In this document: one piece after another, positions 3,138-55,982 of the stretch | Layout: each line of letters begins with the position of its first letter | Position numbering within the stretch: the first letter of the stretch is position 1 | Assembly (NCBI GenBank): GCA_035712345.1 | Contig: DASTAY010000048.1 | Location: 67,179 to 131,178 of the forward strand | Length of the DNA stretch: 64,000 nt | Direction: 5' to 3' | Source: Solirubrobacterales bacterium | Lineage (GTDB): Bacteria > Actinomycetota > Thermoleophilia > Solirubrobacterales > 70-9 | Made by a program: the position numbers and the translations under genes | The notes under the pieces: model-generated | The model's database searches: none | Seen by the model: the letters and a program-made list of their open reading frames with translations, nothing else | What the model was told of the DNA's origin: nothing

Positions 3138-3773
3138 ATGCGAGTCAAGTTCTGCGGAATCACTAATTTGGACGACGCCGCCGAGGCGGTCCGCTTGGGG
3201 GCTTGGGCTATCGGGCTGATCCACTACGCGGAGAGTCCGCGGGCAGTCGAGGGGGCCGAGGCGGCGCGGATCGCGGCTGCTTTCAAGCGCAAGTGCGAGG
3301 TCGTGGGCGTGTTCGTGAATCCCGAGCTGGACGAGGTCGCCAAGGCGGTCGAGGACGCGGGGTTGACGATGGTGCAGCTGAACGGGAACGAGGGGCCGTC
3401 CTTCTGCTCGGAGGTCGCGCGGAAAACCGGGGTCAAGGTGATCAAGGCGGTACACGTGGCGAGCGCCGCCGACGTGCACGCCGCGGAGGCGTTCAGGACC
3501 GACTTCCACCTCTTCGACAAGCGGGGCAAGGGGCTCTGGGGGGGCAGCGGCGAGAGCTTCGACTGGGGCCTGCTCGGGGACCGGCGCTCGGAGGTCCCGG
3601 CGATCGTCGCCGGCGGGCTGCGACCCGACAACGTCGCCGAGGCGATCGCGATCGCCCGTCCTTACGCGGTCGACGTCGCCAGCGGGGTCGAGGCCGAGCC
3701 GGGTCGCAAGGACCATGCCGCGATGACGGCTTTCTTCGAGGCCGCCCAAACGGCTAGCGTTGGCGCTCGATGA
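3138..3773 (+). CDS. trpF: phosphoribosylanthranilate isomerase
   Basis: This 211-aa ORF starts [14 protein letters not shown], typical of TrpF. Its stop overlaps the trpB start. Confidence 0.88.
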
Positions 3774-4948
3774 GCCCGGCGATAGAGGAGAGGTTCGGCC
3801 CCTACGGGGGCCGCTACGTTCCCGAGACGCTGATCCCGGCGCTCGACGAGCTGAGCGAGGCCTGGGGGCAGGCGAGCGGCGACGAGGACTTCCGTGTGCG
3901 TCTCGCCTCGCTGCGCCGCGACTTCGTCGGCCGGCCGACGCCGCTCTACCTGGCCGAACGGCTCTCCGAGAAGGCGGGCCGGAAGGTCTACCTGAAGCGC
4001 GAGGACCTTTGCCATACCGGCGCCCACAAGATCAACAACGCCGTCGGCCAGGTGCTGCTGGCGCAGCGGATGGGCAAGCCGCGGATCATCGCCGAGACCG
4101 GCGCGGGTCAGCACGGCGTCGCGACGGCGACGGCGTGCGCGCTGCTCGGCCTCGAGTGCGTCGTCTACATGGGCACTGAGGACATCCGTCGCCAGGCGCC
4201 CAACGTCGAGCGGATGAAGCTGCTGGGGGCCGAGGTCGCGCCGGTCGACGCCGGCGCGCGCACGCTCAAGGAGGCGGTCAGCGCTGCGATCCGCGATTGG
4301 GTCGCCAACGTCGAGACGACCCACTACGTGATCGGCTCGGCCGTCGGGCCGGCGCCGTTCCCGGCGCTCGTCCGCGACCTGCAGCGGGTGATCGGCGACG
4401 AGGCGCGCGAGCAGGCGCTGGCCGCCGAGGAGGAGTTGCCGGCCCGCGTGATCGCCTGCGTCGGCGGCGGCTCCAACTCGATCGGCATCTTCACGCCGTT
4501 CGTCGCCGACGCGGATGTGGCGCTGGTCGGGGTCGAGGCGGCCGGCGAGGGGCTCGAAAGCGGTCGCCACGGCGCTTCGCTCGGGGCCGGGAGCACCGGG
4601 GTCCTTCACGGTTCGCTGTCGGCGGTGATCGCCGACGAGGAGGGGCAGATCCTCGAGGCGCACTCGGTTTCGGCGGGGCTCGACTACCCGGGTGTGGGTC
4701 CGGAGCACGCCTACCTGCGCGACAGTGGCCGCGCCACCTACACCGCCGTCACCGACGCGGCCGCCCTGGCCGCCTTCGCCGAGCTGGCCCGCCTCGAGGG
4801 GATCATCCCGGCGCTGGAGTCCTCGCACGCGATCGCCTGGCTGCTCGAGAACGGCGGGGGGGGCGGCTACGACGTGTTGTGCCTCTCCGGTAGAGGCGAC
4901 AAGGATTTGGCGGAGGTCGTGGAGTTGGGTGGGGGCATCGGGGGGTGA
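3770..4948 (+). CDS. trpB: tryptophan synthase beta subunit
   Basis: This 392-aa ORF has the PLP-lysine context HTGAHKINN, a GGGSNSIG loop and [13 protein letters not shown] at the N-terminus. Confidence 0.95.
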
Positions 4949-23445: not shown

Positions 23446-23559
23446 GGCGCAATCCCGGTAGGGGTGAAACGTCTTGTACTTTTTCGTCGACTGCGTCGGG
23501 CGTCAGCCGCAGCCCAAGCCTTCGAAAAAGTTAAGTGAAACCCCTGCCGGGATTGCGCC
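23446..23559 (+). repeat. 114-bp palindromic intergenic element, copy 1
   Basis: The outer stem is GGCGCAATCCCGGTAGGGG / CCCCTGCCGGGATTGCGCC (19 bp, one T:G). The conserved blocks are GAAACGTCTTGTACTTTTTCGTCGA and CGAAAAAGTTAAGTG. It lies between convergent genes. Confidence 0.9.
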
Positions 23560-23567
23560 GGAACGCC

Positions 23568-23816
23568 CTATTTTTTGAAGACGAACTTCTGTGACTTGAC
23601 GTTCCAGGAGATCCCGGTGCACAGTTCTTCGGGCGTCACGCCAAGGGCGCTCGAGAGCTTGATGATCGTGCCGAGCCGCGGCTCGCGACCGCCGCGCTCG
23701 AGGAGCGAGATCTCGGTGCGGTGCAGGTCGCAGCGGAAGCCCAGCTCCTCCTGGGAGACCTCGGCTTTGAGTCGCGCTTTGCGCAGGCTGGTGGCGAATC
23801 GGTCGCGTGGTTTCAT
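23568..23816 (-). CDS. XRE-family helix-turn-helix transcriptional regulator (82 aa)
   Basis: LRKARLKAEVSQEELGFRCDLHRTEISLLERGGREPRLGTIIKLSSALGV is a canonical HTH_3/XRE domain. The 3-prime end is noticeably AT-rich. Confidence 0.8.
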   Translation of the reverse strand: MKPRDRFATSLRKARLKAEVSQEELGFRCDLHRTEISLLERGGREPRLGTIIKLSSALGVTPEELCTGISWNVKSQKFVFKK

Positions 23817-46920: not shown

Positions 46921-46956
46921 CGGGTGGTGACTCGGCGGAGTCCGATCCGCGTGACA

Positions 46957-47070
46957 GGTCAGTTCCGGCAGGGGGCGAAACGTCTTGTACTTTTTCGTCG
47001 AACGCATGGGGCGCCAGCACAACCCCGATCCACCGAAAAAGTTAAGTGAAGCCCCCTGCTGGAACTGACC
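46957..47070 (+). repeat. 114-bp palindromic intergenic element, copy 2
   Basis: It has the same invariant blocks as copy 1. The outer stem is GGTCAGTTCCGGCAGGGGG / CCCCCTGCTGGAACTGACC, which differs from copy 1 at many positions with matching changes in both arms. Confidence 0.9.
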
Positions 47071-48889: not shown

Positions 48890-49455
48890 GCGACCTGAGC
48901 CGCACGATCGAGGCGCTGCTCTTCCTCTCGCCGCAACCGGTGGCGCTCGCCGACCTGGTCGAGGCCACCGAGGCGACCGAGGGCCAGGTCGCCGAGGCGA
49001 TCGACCTGCTGCGCGAGGACCTCGGCGGGGGCAGGCGCGGCGTGGTCCTGCGCGAGGTCTCGGGCGGGTTCGCGCTCGCCAGCGACCCGGCGAGCGAGGA
49101 AGCGGCGCGGCGCCTGCTGGCCAAGCCGCGCACGCCGCCGCTGACCCAGGCACAGGCCGAGACGCTGGCGATCGTCGCCTACCTGCAGCCTGTCTCGCGG
49201 CCCGAGGTGGCGCGGATCCGCGGCGTCTCCTCGGAGTCGGCGGTGCAGACGCTGGCCGAGCGCGGGCTGATCGAGGAGTCGGGCCGCTCGCAGTTCGGCG
49301 CCGCGCTGTTCAAGACGACCGAGCTCTTCGAACGGCTCTTCGGCCTCGGCGGGCTCGACCAGCTGCCCGATCCGGCCCAGTTCGACCCGAGTCCCGAGGA
49401 CGAGCGCGAGCTGCGCGAGCGGCTGCTCAAGGCCGGGGAGCAACGGGCCGAGTGA
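48886..49455 (+). CDS. scpB: segregation and condensation protein B
   Basis: It has IEALLFLSPQPV and LTQAQAETLAIVAYLQPVSRPEVARIRGV motifs. Confidence 0.85.
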   Translation: MSDLSRTIEALLFLSPQPVALADLVEATEATEGQVAEAIDLLREDLGGGRRGVVLREVSGGFALASDPASEEAARRLLAKPRTPPLTQAQAETLAIVAYLQPVSRPEVARIRGVSSESAVQTLAERGLIEESGRSQFGAALFKTTELFERLFGLGGLDQLPDPAQFDPSPEDERELRERLLKAGEQRAE

Positions 49456-49461
49456 GCATGG

Positions 49462-49572
49462 GGGCAATCCCGGTGGGGGTTCCACTTAACTTTTTCGGTG
49501 GTTTGGATTCAGCTGTCGCCCGCGGCTCTCGACGAAAAAGTACAAGACGTTTCACCCCCACCGGGATTGCCC
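49462..49572 (-). repeat. 111-bp palindromic intergenic element, copy 3 (reverse orientation)
   Basis: It contains the reverse complements of both invariant blocks (CACTTAACTTTTTCG and TCGACGAAAAAGTACAAGACGTTTC). It has a perfect 18-bp outer stem GGGCAATCCCGGTGGGGG / CCCCCACCGGGATTGCCC. Confidence 0.9.
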
Positions 49573-49576
49573 TCTA

Positions 49577-50275
49577 GTGCGGCTGGCGAAGTTCCTCGCT
49601 CACGGAGGGGTCGCTTCGCGGCGCAGGGCTGAGCTGATCGTCGGCTCGGGTCGGGTCACTGTCGACGGGGAGGTCGTGAGGGATCCGGCGCGGGATGTGG
49701 GGGAGGGGGACGACGTCCGGGTCGATGGAAGCCCGGTCGGCGCCGAGGCGCGGGAGGTCTGGGCGGTCAACAAGCCCGCCGGCGTCGTGTCGACCGCGCG
49801 CGAGCCTGGCGCGCGGTCGGCGGTGGTGGAGCTGGTCGACTCGCCGGCTCGGCTGTATCCGGTCGGGCGGCTCGACGCCGATTCGACCGGGTTGCTGCTG
49901 CTGACCAACGACGGCGAGCTGGCCAACCGGCTGACGCACCCGCGCTACGAAGTGGCGAAGGCCTACCGGGTCGAGCTGCGGCGGCCGCCGAGCGGGGCAG
50001 ACCTGCGGCGCCTGGCGGACGGGGTGGAGCTGGACGACGGGCCGACGGCGCCCGCCGGGGTGCGACGTCTTGGCGAGCGCGAGGTCGAGATCGTCCTGCG
50101 GGAGGGACGCAATCGCCAGATCCGTCGCATGGCCGAGTCGATCGGCAACCGGGTGCTCGCCCTGCGCCGCGTCCGCTTCGGCCCGATCGGGCTGGGCGAT
50201 CTCGCCGAGGGCCGGGCGCGCCGCCTCTCGACCGCCGAGGTCGAGCAGTTGCGGGGGGCCGCGGCTAGGAGGTGA
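49577..50275 (+). CDS. rluB: 23S rRNA pseudouridine synthase, RsuA/RluB family
   Basis: It has an S4 domain (MRLAKFLAHGGVASRRRAE) and the catalytic motif GRLDADSTGLLLLTNDG. Confidence 0.88.
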   Translation: MRLAKFLAHGGVASRRRAELIVGSGRVTVDGEVVRDPARDVGEGDDVRVDGSPVGAEAREVWAVNKPAGVVSTAREPGARSAVVELVDSPARLYPVGRLDADSTGLLLLTNDGELANRLTHPRYEVAKAYRVELRRPPSGADLRRLADGVELDDGPTAPAGVRRLGEREVEIVLREGRNRQIRRMAESIGNRVLALRRVRFGPIGLGDLAEGRARRLSTAEVEQLRGAAARR

Positions 50276-50675
50276 CCTGAACGACGACCGTCCGCTCGCG
50301 CGGCCTGTCGTCGAAATCGAGCAGGACGAGCTGTTGCCAGGTGCCCAGCGCCAGGCGCCCGCCCAGGACCGGGACCGTCTCCGACGGCCCGACCAGGGTC
50401 GCCCGCTGATGGGCGTGTGAGTTGGAGTCGTGGTTGAGCCGGTTGTGCTCGTAGTCCCCCCGTGCCGGGATCAGCCGCTCCACCAGCTCGCGCAGGTCGT
50501 GAATCCCACCCGGCTCGAACTCCATCGTCGAGATCGCCGCCGTGGACCCCCGCACGAACGCCAGCACCTGGCCGTCGCCGATCCCGGCCTCCTCGACGAC
50601 TCGCTGCACCTCGTCGGTGATGTCGACCACATCGGTGTCAGCTTGAGTTGAGAGTTGCAGCTCTGCGGTGTGCAT
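50265..50675 (-). CDS. YjbQ/UPF0047 family protein (secondary thiamine-phosphate synthase-like)
   Basis: This 136-aa ORF has HTTAAL-like STAAISTMEFEPG and NSHAH motifs characteristic of the YjbQ family. Confidence 0.75.
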   Translation of the reverse strand: MHTAELQLSTQADTDVVDITDEVQRVVEEAGIGDGQVLAFVRGSTAAISTMEFEPGGIHDLRELVERLIPARGDYEHNRLNHDSNSHAHQRATLVGPSETVPVLGGRLALGTWQQLVLLDFDDRPRERTVVVQVTS

Positions 50676-50731
50676 CGCTGTTTGACGCTAGCCAATCCCG
50701 CCGCGCCATGTGGGTTTGGGAAGATGCCCCT

Positions 50732-51115
50732 ATGAGTGCGAACGGGAACCAGAGGCTGTTCGCTGTGCGGGGCGCGGTGCAGGCCGAGGCCAACGAAGCC
50801 GCGGCGATCGCCACCGCGACCACCGAGTTGATGCGGGAGCTGCTCGAGCGCAATGCGCTCGAGCCCGAGGCGATGGTCAGCTGCCTGTTCACGACGACCG
50901 ACGACCTCGACGCGGAGTTCCCCGCTGCCGCCGCACGCGAGCTGGGGCTCGCCACGGTGCCGCTGCTCTGCTGCCGCGAGATTCCCGTCCCCGGCTCGAT
51001 GCCGCGGGTGATCCGGGCGATGGTCCACTACTACGCCCCCGCCGGGCACACGACAACGCACGCCTATCTTGGGGCGACGCAGCAGCTGCGCTCCGATCTC
51101 CACGCCGCCCAGTAG
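50732..51115 (+). CDS. aroH: AroH-type monofunctional chorismate mutase (alternative ATG 50708)
   Basis: LFAVRGAVQAEANEAAAI..VSCLFTTTDDLDAEFPAAAARELG..VPLLCCREIPVPGSMPRVIRAM aligns by eye with Bacillus AroH (IRGIRGATT...). Confidence 0.8.
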   Translation: MSANGNQRLFAVRGAVQAEANEAAAIATATTELMRELLERNALEPEAMVSCLFTTTDDLDAEFPAAAARELGLATVPLLCCREIPVPGSMPRVIRAMVHYYAPAGHTTTHAYLGATQQLRSDLHAAQ

Positions 51116-51139
51116 CCGGCCAGTCGGCACAATGGGCGC

Positions 51140-52234
51140 ATGACCGTCACCTTCGCCGAGAAGCTGGCCCGCATCCCGGGTTACCAGGCCGGCGTGCCGA
51201 CCGGGCAGGCGCCTGAGGCGATCGCCTCGGGTGGGATAGCCCAGCTCGCCTCCAACGAGTCGCCCTTCGGCCCGCACCCCCAGGTGGTCGAGGCGATCCG
51301 CGCGGCGGCCGTCGCGATGAATCGCTATCCCGACCCCGACGCGACCCTGCTGCGCCGCCGCATCGCCGAGCGATACGAGACCGAGCCCGGAAGGGTCGCC
51401 GTCGGCAACGGCTCCTGCGAGATCCTCCTCGCCGCGGCCGAGGCGCTCTGCGAGCCGGGCGCCGAGCTCGTCTACGCCTGGCCCTCGTTCTCGATCTACC
51501 CGTACCTGGCGGCGCTCACCAATGCGCGCGAGATTCGCGTGCCGCTTGCCGCAGGCGAAGCCCACGACCTCGACGCGATGGCGGCCGAGGTCACCGCCGC
51601 GACCCAGCTGGTCATCGTCTGCAACCCGAACAACCCCACGGGCACCTATCTGCCGGCCGCGCAGATCGCCGCCTTCTGCGAGCGCCTGCCCGACCACGTC
51701 ACGATCGTCCTCGACGAGGCTTACGTCGAGCTGCAGACGGTCGACGACCCCGACACCACCATCGACCTGCTCGCCGAGTTCCCCAACCTGGTCGTGCTGC
51801 GCACCTTCAGCAAGGTCTACGGCCTGGCCGGGCTACGGGCCGGCTTCGCCCTTGGCTCGGCCAAGTTCCGCGCCGCGGTCGACGCCGTGCGCCAGCCGTT
51901 CAGCGTCAACGCGCTCGCTCAGGCGGCGGCGGCCGAGGCGGTCCTGCACCAGGAGGACGTCGAGCAGCGGGTGGAGCGCACCCTGGTCGAGCGCATCCGG
52001 GTCGAGGAGGGCCTGCACGAGCTCGGCCTCGCCACGGCCGAGACCCAGACCAACTTCTCCTGGATCGACCTCGGCGACGCCGACGAGAAGGCGGTTGTCG
52101 CCGGCCTCGCCGAGCACTCGATCGCCGTCCGTCCGGGCACGCCCCTGGGCGACCCCGGCCACATCCGTGTCAGCTACGGCACCACGGCGGAGAACGACCG
52201 CTTCCTTGCCGCGCTCGGCGCTCTGCTCGACTAA
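51140..52234 (+). CDS. hisC: histidinol-phosphate/aromatic aminotransferase
   Basis: It is a class II aminotransferase with NPNNPTG and the PLP-lysine context RTFSKVYGLAGLRAG. It sits in an aromatic gene cluster. Confidence 0.85.
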   Translation: MTVTFAEKLARIPGYQAGVPTGQAPEAIASGGIAQLASNESPFGPHPQVVEAIRAAAVAMNRYPDPDATLLRRRIAERYETEPGRVAVGNGSCEILLAAAEALCEPGAELVYAWPSFSIYPYLAALTNAREIRVPLAAGEAHDLDAMAAEVTAATQLVIVCNPNNPTGTYLPAAQIAAFCERLPDHVTIVLDEAYVELQTVDDPDTTIDLLAEFPNLVVLRTFSKVYGLAGLRAGFALGSAKFRAAVDAVRQPFSVNALAQAAAAEAVLHQEDVEQRVERTLVERIRVEEGLHELGLATAETQTNFSWIDLGDADEKAVVAGLAEHSIAVRPGTPLGDPGHIRVSYGTTAENDRFLAALGALLD

Positions 52235-52293
52235 TCCCGTTTCGCCTGCTACAAAGTCTGGCAGTGAAGCGAACAGGCGACACCGCGAGCAGC

Positions 52294-52356
52294 ATGTGCG
52301 CACGGCGCGCTGCGGTTGCCCCTGTCCGCATCTCCTATTTCTGGCGATTTAGCTAG
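52294..52356 (+). CDS. candidate aromatic amino-acid leader peptide (20 aa, MCARRAAVAPVRISYFWRFS)
   Basis: I translated this codon by codon: ATG 52294 ... ATC TCC TAT TTC TGG CGA TTT AGC TAG (stop at 52354-52356). Tyr-Phe-Trp are consecutive and a second Phe follows. The AT-rich codons used (TAT, TTT, CGA) are otherwise rare here. It lies about 150 nt upstream of the DAHP synthase gene. No clear SD is visible. Confidence 0.5.
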   Translation: MCARRAAVAPVRISYFWRFS

Positions 52357-52505
52357 GCGTCCGGCCTCGCGGCTTCGTGCCGCCCACATAGAGCGTCTGG
52401 CCGGGCGCCGGTCCCCGTGGTTCGCGCGTTTCGCGATGCCTGCGCTCGCGTGGCGAAGCCCGCACGGAAAGTAGAGTCCCGAAAGTGGAGAAAGGCAGCG
52501 AAGAG
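52357..52505 (+). promoter_or_regulatory. candidate attenuator/leader RNA between the mini-ORF and aroG
   Basis: Several GC-rich stems are mutually exclusive. 52356-52366 pairs with 52399-52409 (11 bp, one G:U). 52371-52381 can instead pair with 52452-60 (7+2 bp). I saw no U-tract terminator. Confidence 0.35.
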
Positions 52506-53585
52506 ATGATCATCGGAATGCGGGAGGAGGCGCGGGACCGGGTTCGCGACCAGCGGATTGAGCGCGTGGTCGAGCTGGTTCCGCCGCAGGCGCTGCTCGG
52601 CGACCTGCCGCTCGGCGCAGAGCGCGAGCGAGTCGTGGTGAGCGGCCGCGAGGACGTCGAGAAGGTGCTCGAGATGAGCGACGATCGGCTGCTCGTCGTG
52701 GTCGGCCCGTGCAGCGTGCACGACGCCGAGGCGGCGCTGGAGTACGCCGGGCGCCTGGCCGGGCTGGCGGGCGAGCTCGAAGACGACCTGCTGGTCGCGA
52801 TGCGCGTCTACTTCGAGAAGCCACGGACGACGACCGGCTGGAAGGGGCTGATCAACGATCCCTACCTGGACGGCTCCTGCGACGTCAACGCCGGCCTGCG
52901 CATGGCCCGCACCCTGCTGCTGCAGGTGCTCGACCTCGGCCTGCCGATCGGCTGCGAGTTCCTCGACCCGATCACGCCGCAGTACATCTCCGACACCGTC
53001 GCCTGGGGCGCGATCGGCGCCCGCACGACCGAGAGCCAGACGCATCGCCAGCTCGGCTCCGGCCTCTCGATGCCGATCGGGTTCAAGAACCGCACTGACG
53101 GCAACGTCCAGGTCGCGGTCGATGCGGTTCGCGCCGCCGCCGCCTCGCACGCCTTCGCCGGGATCGACGACGCGGGCAGGCCGGCGATCCTGCACACGGC
53201 GGGCAACCCGGACGGCCACGTGATCCTGCGTGGCGGTCGCGGAAGGCCCAACTGCGATCCCGAGGGGGTCGCCGCTGCCCTGACGATGCTGTCCGGCGCC
53301 GGCCTCGCCGAGCGCCTGGTGATCGACGCCTCGCACGACAACAGCGCCAAGGACCCCGATAAGCAGATGGCGGCGACGGCGGCGATCGGCGACCAGGTCG
53401 CCGCCGGCAACGGCGCGATCGTCGGCGTGATGCTGGAGTCGTTCCTGGTCGAGGGCCGTCAGGACCTCGGCGACGGGGGGGCGCTCACCTACGGTCAGTC
53501 GATAACCGACCCCTGCATCGACTGGGACCACACCGTGACCGCGCTGGAGGGCCTGGCGGCGGCCGTGCGGACACGGCGCGGGTGA
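52506..53585 (+). CDS. aroG: 3-deoxy-7-phosphoheptulonate (DAHP) synthase, class I-alpha (AroF/G/H type; start could be GTG 52485, ATG 52506 or ATG 52518)
   Basis: It is close by eye to E. coli AroG: DDRLLVVVGPCSVHD, RVYFEKPRTTTGWKGLINDP, WGAIGARTTESQTHR, GFKNRTDG and ILRGG. Confidence 0.92.
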   Translation: MIIGMREEARDRVRDQRIERVVELVPPQALLGDLPLGAERERVVVSGREDVEKVLEMSDDRLLVVVGPCSVHDAEAALEYAGRLAGLAGELEDDLLVAMRVYFEKPRTTTGWKGLINDPYLDGSCDVNAGLRMARTLLLQVLDLGLPIGCEFLDPITPQYISDTVAWGAIGARTTESQTHRQLGSGLSMPIGFKNRTDGNVQVAVDAVRAAAASHAFAGIDDAGRPAILHTAGNPDGHVILRGGRGRPNCDPEGVAAALTMLSGAGLAERLVIDASHDNSAKDPDKQMAATAAIGDQVAAGNGAIVGVMLESFLVEGRQDLGDGGALTYGQSITDPCIDWDHTVTALEGLAAAVRTRRG

Positions 53586-54667
53586 TGAGGACGGCCGTCC
53601 TCGGGGTGGGTTTGATCGGGGGCTCGATCGGGCTCGCCGCGAAGGAGCGGCTGGGATCGGAGGTCGTCGGCTGGGGGCCGCGGCGGCCGACCCTCGAGCG
53701 GGCGCTGGCGCTCGGCGCCCTCGACCGTGCGGCCGACTCGATCGCCGAGGCATGCGCAAGTGCCGAGGTCGTCTTCTGCGCCGGCCCGGTGGCGGCGCTG
53801 CCCGAGCTGGCCCGCGCCGCGCTGGAGGCGAGCGGCCCTGAGACCGTGGTCAGCGACGCCGGCTCGACCAAGCGCGGGATCGTCGCCGCGCTGGGCGAGG
53901 ACGAGCGCTTCGTCGGCGGGCACCCGCTGGCCGGGGCCGAGACCGCCGGGGTCGAGAACGCCCGCGCCGACCTCTTCGAGGGAGCCCGCTGGTACCTGAC
54001 CCCCACCGAGCGCACCGGCGGCATTCTTTACGACCGCCTGCAGCGCGCGATCGCCGGGCTCGGCGCGCGCCCCCAGGCGATCGACGCCACAGCGCACGAC
54101 CGCCTGATGGCGACCGTCAGCCACCTTCCCCACGTGCTCGCCGACGTGCTCGCGTCCCAGGCCGCCGCGGAGCTGACACGCGACTCCGAGCGGATGCCCG
54201 AGGTCGGCCCGAGCTTTCGCGACGCGACCCGCGTCGCCGGGTCGAATCCAGGGATCTGGGGCGACATCTTCGCCGCCAACCGCGATGCGGTGCTCGCCGC
54301 GATCGACGACTCGATCGCCCGCCTGCGCGAGGCGCGCGAGCTGATCGGCTCGGGGGAGGTCGGCGCGGTCGAGTCCTGGCACGCCGCGGCGGGCGCCGAT
54401 CGCCGTCGCCTGCTCGAGGTCGAGCGCCGCGGCGAGGCCCTGCGCGAGCTGCGCGTCGTCGTCGCCAACCGCCCCGGCACGGTCGCCGAGCTGGCGCTGG
54501 CGCTGGGCGAGGCGGGCGTCAACATCGAGGACATGGCGCTGCACCCGGCGGCGGACATGAGGTCCGGGGCGATCTCACTCTGGGTCGGCGGCGACGAGCA
54601 GGCCGAGCGGGCCGCGAGCCTGATCCAGGGGCTGGGCCACAGCGCAACCGTGCTGGCCGAGGAGTAG
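53582..54667 (+). CDS. tyrA: prephenate dehydrogenase with C-terminal ACT domain
   Basis: It has VLGVGLIGGSIGLA (Rossmann), GGHPLAG and HDRLMATVSHLPH motifs and an ACT-like C-terminus. Its start overlaps the aroG stop. Confidence 0.88.
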   Translation: MMRTAVLGVGLIGGSIGLAAKERLGSEVVGWGPRRPTLERALALGALDRAADSIAEACASAEVVFCAGPVAALPELARAALEASGPETVVSDAGSTKRGIVAALGEDERFVGGHPLAGAETAGVENARADLFEGARWYLTPTERTGGILYDRLQRAIAGLGARPQAIDATAHDRLMATVSHLPHVLADVLASQAAAELTRDSERMPEVGPSFRDATRVAGSNPGIWGDIFAANRDAVLAAIDDSIARLREARELIGSGEVGAVESWHAAAGADRRRLLEVERRGEALRELRVVVANRPGTVAELALALGEAGVNIEDMALHPAADMRSGAISLWVGGDEQAERAASLIQGLGHSATVLAEE

Positions 54668-54671
54668 CCCG

Positions 54672-55982
54672 GTGGCCACCCGCTTCGACCCGTCCGGGCC
54701 GCTGCACGGCAGCCTGCGCTCCCCACCCGACAAGTCGGTCTCCCACCGGGCGGCGCTGATCGCGGCGATGGGGGAGGGGGACACGACGATCGAGGGCTAC
54801 CTGGACGCGGCCGACACCCGCTCGACCCTCGCGGCCGTCGAGGCGCTTGGGGCGCAGGTGAGCGGAGTGGGACCTGCGGCGATCGAGCCGCGGCTGCGGG
54901 TGCGCGGCGTTGGCCTGCGCGGCGCCGCGGCGGCCGCGCTCGACGTCGGCAACGCCGGCACCCTGCTGCGCCTCCTGCCGGGTTGGCTGGCGGGGCAGGA
55001 GACCGGGTCGTGGACGCTCGACGGCGACGATTCGATCCGGCGCCGCCCGGTCGACCGGATCGCGTCGCCGTTGCGCTCGATGGGAGCGCGGATCGAGGCT
55101 CGCGAGGGCCTGCCGCCGCTGCGAATCGACGGCGCCCCGCTGGCCGGGATCGAGTACGAGCTGCCGGTCGCCAGCGCCCAGGTGAAGTCCTGCCTGCTCT
55201 TCGCCGGGCTGCTCGCCGAAGGGGAGACGCGGATAATCGAGCCGCTGCCGAGTCGCGACCACAGCGAGCGGATGCTGGCGGCGGCCGGGGCGGAGATCGA
55301 GCGCGGCGACGGGCTCGTCTCGGTTCGCCCCGCGGCGCTGCTCGAGCCGGGCGCGATAGTCGTTCCCGCCGACTTCTCCTCGGCGGCCTTCTTCGTCGTC
55401 GCGGCGCTGCTCGTGCCCGGCAGCGAGGTCAACCTCGTCGGCGTCGGCCTCAACCCGACCCGAACCGGCCTGCTCTCGATCCTCGCGCGGATGGGCGCCC
55501 GGATCGAGGTCGAGCCCGAGGGCGAGCGCGGCGGCGAGCCGAGCGGCCGGTTGCGCGTTCGCGCCTCCGAGCTGCAGGGCGCCGAGGTCGGCGGCGGGGA
55601 GATCCCGCTGGCGATAGACGAGCTCCCCCTGGTCGCGCTCGCCGCCTGCTTCGCCGAGGGCGAGACGACGATTCGCGACGCGGCCGAGCTGCGGCGCAAG
55701 GAGAGCGACCGGATCGAGACCGTGGCCGCCGCGCTCACGGCGCTAGGTGCCGAAGTGGAGACGAGCGAGGACGGCATGCGGATCGTCGGCGCCGGCGGCC
55801 TGCGCGGCGGCTCGATCGACTCCCACGGCGACCACCGGATCGCGATGCTCGGCGCGATCGCCGGCGTCGCCTCGCGCGACGGCGTCGAGGTCGCCGGCAT
55901 GGATGCCGCCGCCGTCAGCTACCCCGGCTTCGAGGCCGACCTCGCCTCACTTGCCGGTCCCGGGCGCCTTTTGGGTGCGTAG
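54672..55982 (+). CDS. aroA: 3-phosphoshikimate 1-carboxyvinyltransferase (EPSP synthase)
   Basis: It has PPDKSVSHRAALIAA, GNAGTLLRLL, LRRKESDRI and DHRIAM motifs. Confidence 0.93.
   Translation: MATRFDPSGPLHGSLRSPPDKSVSHRAALIAAMGEGDTTIEGYLDAADTRSTLAAVEALGAQVSGVGPAAIEPRLRVRGVGLRGAAAAALDVGNAGTLLRLLPGWLAGQETGSWTLDGDDSIRRRPVDRIASPLRSMGARIEAREGLPPLRIDGAPLAGIEYELPVASAQVKSCLLFAGLLAEGETRIIEPLPSRDHSERMLAAAGAEIERGDGLVSVRPAALLEPGAIVVPADFSSAAFFVVAALLVPGSEVNLVGVGLNPTRTGLLSILARMGARIEVEPEGERGGEPSGRLRVRASELQGAEVGGGEIPLAIDELPLVALAACFAEGETTIRDAAELRRKESDRIETVAAALTALGAEVETSEDGMRIVGAGGLRGGSIDSHGDHRIAMLGAIAGVASRDGVEVAGMDAAAVSYPGFEADLASLAGPGRLLGA

Follow-up and report, generated by a model that had tools for sequence, protein, structure and literature searches.

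An aromatic-rich leader ORF ending on a conserved hairpin precedes DAHP synthase genes of Solirubrobacterales and is a candidate ribosome-mediated attenuator

The enterobacterial trpL and pheL leaders have their regulatory codons towards the 3′ end of a short open reading frame (ORF), and the position of the ribosome on that frame is read through RNA structure; the Escherichia coli trpL peptide ends in GWWRTS-stop, and an RNA structure (segment 2) follows right after the stop codon. Also among the nearest described counterparts of the locus considered here are two actinobacterial systems. In Corynebacterium glutamicum, the leader aroR, with a Phe-Tyr-Phe run upstream of the 3-deoxy-D-arabino-heptulosonate 7-phosphate (DAHP) synthase gene aroF, is experimentally documented (Neshat et al. 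2014, via PMC11802643 and PMC4046766), and ribosome stalling at its aromatic codons is reported to raise expression of the operon (PMC11802643, PMC4046766). In mycobacteria, translational attenuation has been shown experimentally for Ms5788A, a leaderless cysteine small ORF (sORF) whose regulation acts on translation (Canestrari et al., bioRxiv 10.1101/834739). Here we consider a short ORF directly upstream of aroG, the gene for a type I-alpha DAHP synthase, in a 64-kb stretch of a Solirubrobacterales genome (contig DASTAY010000048.1, positions 67,179 to 131,178). We refer to this whole stretch as the window, and all coordinates below are positions within it.

The leader ORF (52264..52356, + strand; 30 codons plus a TAG stop, with a GTG start in the ORF listing) encodes MKRTGDTASSMCARRAAVAPVRISYFWRFS. 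Its putative sensor codons, TAT TTC TGG CGA TTT (Tyr Phe Trp Arg Phe; 52336..52350, + strand), stand out by in-frame aromatic enrichment and rare codon usage, and a hairpin that we call P1 (52356..52409, + strand) starts on the last base of the stop codon. The ORF is conserved, the aromatic cluster is kept in frame, P1 covaries, the arrangement is linked exclusively to DAHP synthase genes, and, judged by sequence, the leader is homologous to leaders of seven other actinobacterial genera. We put the probability that the element is an aromatic-sensing, ribosome-mediated leader-peptide attenuator of the DAHP synthase operon (aroG, tyrA, aroA) at about 0.7; most likely a shortage of Tyr, Phe or Trp leads, through it, to more of the enzyme that opens aromatic amino-acid synthesis. 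Analogy and the anatomy of the leader lend the sensor step good support. The promoter, the leaderless start, the stalling and above all the output step, be it masking or premature termination, are put forward as a model. A preliminary description of this stretch had proposed an aromatic leader of the aroR kind controlling DAHP synthase, and the conservation test that the description itself had named strongly supports that proposal. The element is genuine, conserved and of a known kind, in a variant form undescribed in the sources searched; among the best-ranked literature matches, none named Solirubrobacterales or Thermoleophilia alongside a leader peptide, an attenuator or an upstream ORF (uORF).

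The comparison with these systems shows both shared and distinct features. Like aroR, the window leader places clustered aromatic codons in a short ORF that immediately precedes the gene for a type I DAHP synthase, a likeness by description and not by compared sequences. Unlike the window leader, aroR is reported to respond to Phe and not to Tyr, with no mention of a Trp residue (PMC11802643, PMC4046766); in the window, codons for all of Tyr, Phe and Trp are present, the leader stops three codons past Trp, and no terminator can be identified. With Ms5788A it shares an sORF of about 90 nt followed by about 100–150 untranslated nt, the placement of the regulatory codons at the 3′ end of the sORF, and the lack of a terminator. 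Two further features of Ms5788A, a leaderless start and a predicted pairing of the regulatory codons with a downstream Shine-Dalgarno (SD) sequence, are putative for the window leader. Ms5788A differs in that it senses Cys, is unrelated in sequence and has no conserved hairpin abutting its stop; the codon-tract:SD pairing, moreover, is predicted in the window and in many, not all, of its relatives. The trpL and pheL leaders, finally, are built of four segments in which a 2:3 and a 3:4 hairpin exclude each other; they also have a terminator with a U-tract, and an SD leads their ORF. None of these three features was found in the window.

When loci fetched from outside the order were searched for aromatic-rich short ORFs, many DAHP synthase genes proved to have such leaders. 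Aligned by anchoring on TTT, the core reads TAT TTC TGG CGA TTT AGC TAG GCG TCC GGC C in the window, TAT TTC TGG TTT AGC AGG CCG GCC in Rhodococcus, TAT TGG CGC TTT ATC GTG GCT CCG GGT GG in Mycobacterium, TAT CGA TGG TTT AGG CAG CCG GCT in Micromonospora, and TAT TGG CGC TTT ACG nnn GCT CYG GGT GG in Streptosporangiales and Catellatospora. These leaders share with that of the window a core Y-(F)-W-(R)-F that matches codon for codon, including the same rare TAT and TTT, a start codon 6–7 nt past a TAnnnT box, and a GC-rich, P1-like hairpin whose 5′ arm lies 6–8 nt after TTT (GGCUCCGGGU there, GGCGUCCGGCC in the window). They differ in where translation ends. Outside the order, the ORF continues through the 5′ arm of the hairpin (..APGG..) to a stop inside the loop, whereas in Solirubrobacterales TAG stands two codons after Phe at the hairpin foot, the ribosome does not move into the hairpin, and the terminator has been lost. 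Twelve relatives were examined for terminators: Mycobacterium (L029, L054), Micromonospora (L018, L022, L032), Catellatospora (L039), Streptosporangiales (L023, L026, L051), Rhodococcus (L071), Amycolatopsis (L033) and Paractinoplanes (L019). A canonical hairpin with a U-tract directly after the P1 homologue was present in 8/12; those without one came from Rhodococcus, Amycolatopsis, Trebonia and one Streptosporangiaceae locus.

For five of these leaders (L029, L022, L039, L051 and L019; 260 nt before the DAHP synthase start), simple folding with a masked ribosome always left the terminator hairpin intact. Downstream of the terminator, L022, L051 and L039 have a stretch nearly identical to the 5′ arm of P1; in L029 the repeat resembles the 3′ arm instead. 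How these homologues would bring about antitermination is thus hard to see as well.

Within the order, the association of the leader with DAHP synthase is close. A scan by AroG alignment, taking one genome per species, yielded 18 loci of Solirubrobacterales type and 62 loci of other phyla or orders. The exact block GCGATTTNNCTAGGCG, which occurs a single time in the 64-kb window, lies upstream of the first DAHP synthase gene in 14/18 of the former and 0/62 of the latter; of the remaining four, three lack a leader and the other, L016, carries a near variant of the block. Four more loci, reached via AroG homologues only and so unbiased with respect to the motif, all carry it (4/4). A metagenome scan for GCGATTTNNCTAGGCG gave about 43 high-GC contigs, all with an aromatic-rich ORF ending W-R-F-(S/T/I/L/N)-TAG and then a hairpin, the other matches being low-GC chance matches. 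The arrangement was thereby found before the first DAHP synthase gene in 57 Solirubrobacterales genome or metagenome loci with 63–92% AroG identity, and all 57 keep an in-frame start and the same stop, with ORF lengths of 21–39 codons. Wherever enough downstream DNA was available, the next gene encodes a DAHP synthase (52/52 loci), with the leader on the same strand and directly upstream. The enzyme behind the leader may be the I-alpha type of the window, a second I-alpha paralogue, or a I-beta type with an N-terminal regulatory domain, which ties the element to the enzymatic step and not to one gene lineage. No Rfam family (release 15) matched the window at gathering score, the matches at E ≤10 in 52150–52600 being two chance hits to long noncoding RNAs, and none matched in nine related loci.

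The aromatic codons are concentrated at the end of the reading frame. In 58 leaders, counted back in frame from the stop, the fraction of Phe, Trp and Tyr codons is 1.00 at position -2 and 0.90 at position -4, falls to 0.50–0.57 at positions -5 to -7, 0.21–0.33 at -8 to -11 and 0.07–0.14 at -12 to -15, and is about 0.02 at -16 and beyond; in the other two frames it stays ≤0.19 throughout. The tails themselves are diverse (YFW, YW, YWW, YFYFW, YWSW, WFTPYW, YAYAYAW and others), and the N-terminal two thirds of the peptide drift and differ between clades. Conservation of a Y/F/W cluster in frame amid drifting codons is what the preliminary description had looked to in an alignment of the regions upstream of aroG in relatives, and it is what we see. 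Its statement that the sensor codons are unusual for this genome likewise holds: six neighbouring genes use TAT 4 times against 22 for TAC and TTT 2 times against 32 for TTC, and CGA makes up 5/173 of their Arg codons. The leaders depart from this usage, with TAT accounting for 47/95 of Tyr codons (4/26 in window genes), TTT for 12/56 of Phe codons (2/34 in window genes), and CGA fixed despite its rarity.

Over these codons extends an invariant nucleotide block, TGGCGATTTAGCTAGGCG (52342..52359, + strand), which covers W R F S, the stop and the base of P1 and is recognized from the leaders of relatives. Within its CGA TTT NNC TAG, the codons CGA TTT are unchanged in 19/19 leaders reached by AroG homology alone, while adjacent codons vary; metagenome matches, having been chosen by the motif itself, are excluded from this count. 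A search between P1 and the ATG for an RNA partner of the invariant GCGAUUUNNCUA found none (mean z = +0.28). Two candidate pairings were rejected: one of GCGAUUUNNCUA with the RNA copy of the second -10-like box, true in the window fold, fails family-wide, and a 4-bp mini-hairpin UGGC/GCUA given by RNAalifold is broken by natural variants of the last codon (AGC to ACC, ATC or CTC).

P1 consists of arms at 52356–66 and 52399–409 and an inner stem at 52369–73/52379–83. An inverted-repeat search bore out the pairing of the two arms that had been proposed from the letters (11 nt, 91% complementary), and the hairpin alone folds at -32.3 kcal/mol (z = -2.9). In every locus the final G of TAG is also the first base of its 5′ arm. 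Across 58 loci, 91% of cells are paired, and in 6/11 pairs both partners have changed, as from C:G to U:A at two of them, a level of covariation that 0/500 shuffles reach. Neither a second P1-like hairpin nor a second copy of the motif was found in the window. Given the known footprint of the ribosome, a ribosome terminating at the TAG would have to open the base of P1. Further downstream lies a lineage-specific hairpin without a U-tract, P2 (52415..52467, + strand; -22.2 kcal/mol), seen in the window-like clade at the position where relatives outside the order have their terminator. We rejected P2 as a conserved element, its energy being no better than that of shuffles (z = -0.3); loci with just 42–49 nt from P1 to the ATG have no space for it.

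The leader most likely begins further upstream than first proposed. The preliminary description had placed a 20-codon mini-ORF from ATG 52294 to TAG 52354–52356, encoding MCARRAAVAPVRISYFWRFS; this reading is correct as far as it goes, but the frame upstream of the ATG stays open back to GTG 52264 in the ORF listing. The N-terminus (V/M)KRxxDTxS, or MKRxxDTxS in its ATG-started form, is common to relatives that lack the internal ATG, and for this reason GTG 52264 is most likely the start, with 52294 an internal Met codon. Eight nt before the GTG stands an extended -10-like box, TGCTACAAA (52247..52255, + strand), a putative leader promoter. A TGnTAnnnn word lies ≤30 nt from the chosen start in 44/53 loci (hexamer TACAAA in 23, TACAAC in 10; consensus TGnTAcAAn), and the gap from box to the ATG or GTG start codon is 7–10 nt in 32 of those 44, a distance to be read in light of the fact that start codons were partly picked using the box. 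The last base of the hexamer TACAAA is not the usual T, and scans for consensus promoters and for terminators around the locus (50000–54000) found nothing. SD-like words precede only 8/53 leader starts as against 52/53 DAHP synthase starts, and there is none upstream of GTG 52264. The conserved box near the start together with the scarcity of SD-like words argues that a separate, leaderless transcript probably begins with the leader ORF, a kind of transcript common in Actinobacteria (PMC4633059; bioRxiv 10.1101/834739). The admitted weakness that neither an SD nor a promoter could be seen would thereby be accounted for, and the suggestion that the ORF is read from the hisC transcript appears less probable than an own promoter with a leaderless start.

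From this anatomy we propose the following mechanism. A short mRNA would have its 5′ end on GTG 52264 or only a few bases away, and would be translated without an SD. The Tyr, Phe and Trp codons, some of them rare (TAT, TTT), occupy the last third of the 30-codon ORF, and when charged aromatic tRNAs are scarce the ribosome would stall there; with an aromatic codon in its A site, it would halt short of P1. When charged tRNAs are plentiful, the ribosome would reach the TAG, having to melt the foot of P1 in order to decode the final sense codon and the stop, and then depart. The vacated pyrimidine-rich tract (52331–54) would be free to pair with 52470–91, including the SD of aroG, and the resulting helix would block the translation of aroG and act by polarity on tyrA and aroA; a stalled ribosome sitting on the tract would instead keep the helix open, allowing aroG to be translated.

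The evidence for such masking comes from folding. The predicted helix, H0, joins the aromatic tract (5′ strand UCUCC..UUUC.GG.GAUUU.GCU, 52331..52354, + strand) to a 3′ strand (52470..52491, + strand) that comprises TAGAGT (52472–77) and the first five bases, GGAGA, of the aroG SD region, GGAGAAAGG (52487..52495, + strand). In the fold of 52328–52495 (-77.7 kcal/mol, z = -2.3), H0 appears in both the minimum-free-energy and the centroid structures, where it closes a predicted three-way junction around P1 and P2, and 20.7 of 30 bases of the window tract are expected to be paired with the peri-SD region, compared with 9.9 after shuffling. Among relatives, the best anti-SD 14-mer is located in the tract in 30/53 loci (24% expected), and tract:peri-SD pairing lies above shuffles in 38/57 loci (p = 0.0015); simple tract:peri-SD duplex energies give a weak signal (mean z = -0.61). 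The pairing in the window suggests translational attenuation like that of the mycobacterial leaderless Cys sORFs, though it is not universal, and we propose masking of the aroG SD as the output step in the window only tentatively, at somewhat less than even odds.

A number of observations weigh against this interpretation, whether against masking itself or against the strength of the supporting statistics. The tract:SD helix is absent from a whole clade (L007, L089, L101, L103 and L125). In equilibrium folding with a masked ribosome, SD accessibility is 0.44 with the ribosome at the stop and 0.47–0.49 with the ribosome stalled, a small change. Base composition by itself could make Phe, Tyr and Ser codons complementary to an SD rich in purines, and masking leaves the high conservation of P1 and of CGA TTT NNC TAG unexplained. 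The box at 52472–77 may give rise to aroG transcripts independent of the leader. As to the statistics, the loci are phylogenetically related, so that p-values overstate independence, and the metagenome set was selected by the motif.

The box just mentioned belongs to a conserved GTAnnnT word (TAGAGT in the window) that is followed by TTCCAG and stands 22–32 nt before the ATG in many loci, with all types of DAHP synthase; it is found also in L005, which has lost its leader. To judge by its sequence and position, it is probably a second, proximal promoter for basal expression of aroG.

The most serious alternative to masking keeps the same sensor and has transcription end prematurely in the stretch from P1 to aroG, through Rho or at a U-tract-less hairpin (P2 or P1), with the ribosome's position deciding whether P1 closes; the ancestral mode of the family would then persist in non-canonical form. 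We hold this to be somewhat less probable than masking. In Mycobacterium, Micromonospora, Catellatospora, Paractinoplanes and Streptosporangiaceae, the P1 homologue is followed directly by a perfect hairpin with a U-tract, P2 occupies the same position in the window clade, and it is P1, not the tract:SD helix, that is universal; in M. tuberculosis, moreover, premature termination is reported to be mostly linked to Rho and tied to translated uORFs (bioRxiv 10.1101/2022.06.01.494293). The preliminary description was right that there is no U-tract terminator, none being found in 50000–54000, but canonical terminators are not enriched in the window at all (21 found, about 15 expected), so that a missing U-tract says little about whether transcription stops here. 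Set against these points are the rarity in the order of a hairpin with a U-tract or T-rich tail before the ATG (2/53 loci), the want of a conserved alternative partner for either arm of P1, the many loci in which the 42–49 nt between P1 and the ATG are too short for a second hairpin, and the lack, on reading, of an obvious C-rich, G-poor stretch. The lack of alternative partners tells also against the classical attenuator originally envisaged, in which 52356–66:52399–409 and 52371–81:52452–60 would form mutually exclusive folds. Both complementarities are present in the window, and the geometry resembles that of E. coli trpL. The second, however, amounts to 7 bp (GGCUUCG 52371–77 with CGAAGCC 52454–60), which falls below the ≥8-nt repeats listed and was found by reading the sequence, and it is lost even in relatives at 84–91% AroG identity. 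Over 53 loci, neither the 3′ arm of P1 downstream (mean z = +0.12) nor the 5′ arm upstream (mean z = -0.29) has a partner better than shuffled sequence, and no terminator follows; the idea of exclusive folds is therefore not supported, and a classical attenuator is very improbable here.

Other explanations take the ORF out of cis attenuation or alter what it senses. The ORF and P1 might form a separate small unit, a peptide or a stable small RNA ending at P1, with aroG transcribed from the proximal TAGAGT (52472–77) and any role of the leader acting in trans or indirectly. The TAnnnT and TTCCAG words in many loci, including the one that has lost its leader, would fit, as would the high stability of P1 directly after the stop and the precedent of Sinorhizobium, where trpL attenuator RNAs and leader peptides are described as acting in trans (PMC6614838, PMC7298713); but the peptide is poorly conserved outside its aromatic tail, P1 has no U-tract, and the unit always lies on the same strand directly upstream of the first DAHP synthase gene, of whichever type, which makes such a separation improbable. 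About as improbable is the conversion in Solirubrobacterales of an ancestral terminator attenuator into a switch made of P1 alone, in which the stop has moved to the foot of P1, UGG CGA UUU NNC UAG arrests the ribosome on the base of P1, and free aromatic amino acids are perhaps sensed as TnaC senses Trp. A shade less probable again is the more general notion that W-R-F-x-stop, in which CGA TTT and TAG are fixed, works as an arrest module, dependent on the nascent peptide or on the codons, that holds the ribosome on the P1 base, by analogy a stop-codon hold like that of TnaC or SpeFL, which would possibly sense free aromatic amino acids besides tRNA charging. An arrest module would account for the invariance of CGA TTT NNC TAG in the 19 unbiased leaders amid varying neighbours, which an RNA partner fails to explain (the mini-hairpin being broken by natural variants), and W-R-F or W-F is kept across the phylum; yet stop-codon arrest cannot be ancestral, given that translation runs on beyond this point in leaders outside the order, the Arg is missing in Rhodococcus, Amycolatopsis and Paractinoplanes, and slow decoding of rare codons alone could account for the conservation. 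That the ORF is a functionless chance product of a GC-rich spacer has a probability close to nil: the lack of an Rfam match and the unremarkable folding of the whole spacer (z = -0.74, both strands being no better than shuffles) would agree with it, but it is refuted by the frame-specific conservation across the 57 loci, the covariation of P1 and the exclusive association with DAHP synthase.

The leader sits within a co-oriented cluster of aromatic genes. Upstream lie genes for a chorismate mutase (50648–51115) and a class I/II aminotransferase (51140–52234, stop codon 52232–34; the hisC of the preliminary description), and the spacer from that stop to the ATG of aroG measures 271 nt, close to the 270 bp given earlier, with the ATG at 52506 and not at 52507. 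The regulated gene aroG (52506..53585, + strand) encodes a type I-alpha DAHP synthase (Pfam DAHP_synth_1, 1.4e-78), and its product is 78–92% identical to its homologues, the few of which that carry a source name are all labelled Solirubrobacterales. Its stop overlaps the start of the prephenate dehydrogenase gene tyrA (53582–54667; PDH_N/PDH_C) at 53582–53585 (GTGA), and aroA, for 5-enolpyruvylshikimate-3-phosphate (EPSP) synthase (54672–55982; EPSP_synthase domain), begins 4 nt after tyrA ends. In view of this overlap and close spacing, control by the leader should extend, by polarity or by coupled translation, to three or more genes of the aromatic pathway. A search for tRNAs found none in the window, and a T-box-like or tRNA-linked reading is accordingly not suggested.

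Solirubrobacterales are a large group of soil-dwelling Actinomycetota, represented here only by uncultured genomes and metagenome contigs, and the element gives them a defined candidate for cis control of the shikimate pathway at its entry. Across Actinobacteria more broadly, type I DAHP synthase genes have before them an aromatic leader that shares the Tyr-Trp-(Arg)-Phe core and uses rare codons, and no Rfam family matched these leaders. The branches with and without a terminator amount to a natural experiment in which the output step has changed and the sensor has been kept. The window leader is also a candidate second case of attenuation by a leaderless sORF, after that for cysteine. In practical terms, the leader ORF is missed by annotation pipelines, and metabolic engineers would want it removed.

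Several loci of the order show departures from the common arrangement. L005 is a natural loss variant in which only the remnants GTGCTAC..TCCTAG of box and stop are left, and L008 and L015 have no leader upstream of DAHP synthase. L016 has a degenerate tail, A-G-R-R-F-T-stop, with neither Tyr nor Trp. In L017, a short ORF after the leader (3527–4060) resembles a collapsed type I-beta DAHP synthase, its N-terminal regulatory domain fused to a C-terminal tail (MMIVMKETATPGEIEAVVTKIERAGALAGKTLAGRKATDA), and an intact I-alpha gene comes next; in L006 and L013 a single leader stands before a tandem of I-beta and I-alpha genes, both intact, and in L012 the I-beta gene is shortened at its N-terminus.

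Type I DAHP synthase loci of Proteobacteria also have short upstream ORFs rich in Phe, Tyr and Trp, such as MSAKFYFYFFWHLRPLADREG or M.FARFYF.F.FSYSSP. Such ORFs were seen in L031, L041, L043, L044, L045 and L049 (Burkholderia group), in L028, L065, L068 and L076, and in L027, L047, L059, L036 and L053 (Paucimonas, Keguizhuia, a Bifidobacterium metagenome-assembled genome, Rugamonas and Massilia). The proteobacterial leaders are unrelated in sequence to the actinobacterial core, and an Rfam scan of L031 and L047 gave no match.

Elsewhere in the window, a repeat of about 110 nt occurs in three copies, at ~23461–23575 (+ strand), ~46951–47065 (+ strand) and ~49455–49565 (- strand). It matches neither an Rfam family nor a tRNA. 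Long inverted arms (GCAATCCCGGTGGGGGT ... ACCCCC-CCGGGATTGC) flank an AT-rich core (CTTTTTCG ... CGAAAAAG) in this 71% GC genome, and the repeat could be an element resembling miniature inverted-repeat transposable elements or repetitive extragenic palindromes, a bidirectional terminator, or a structured small RNA.

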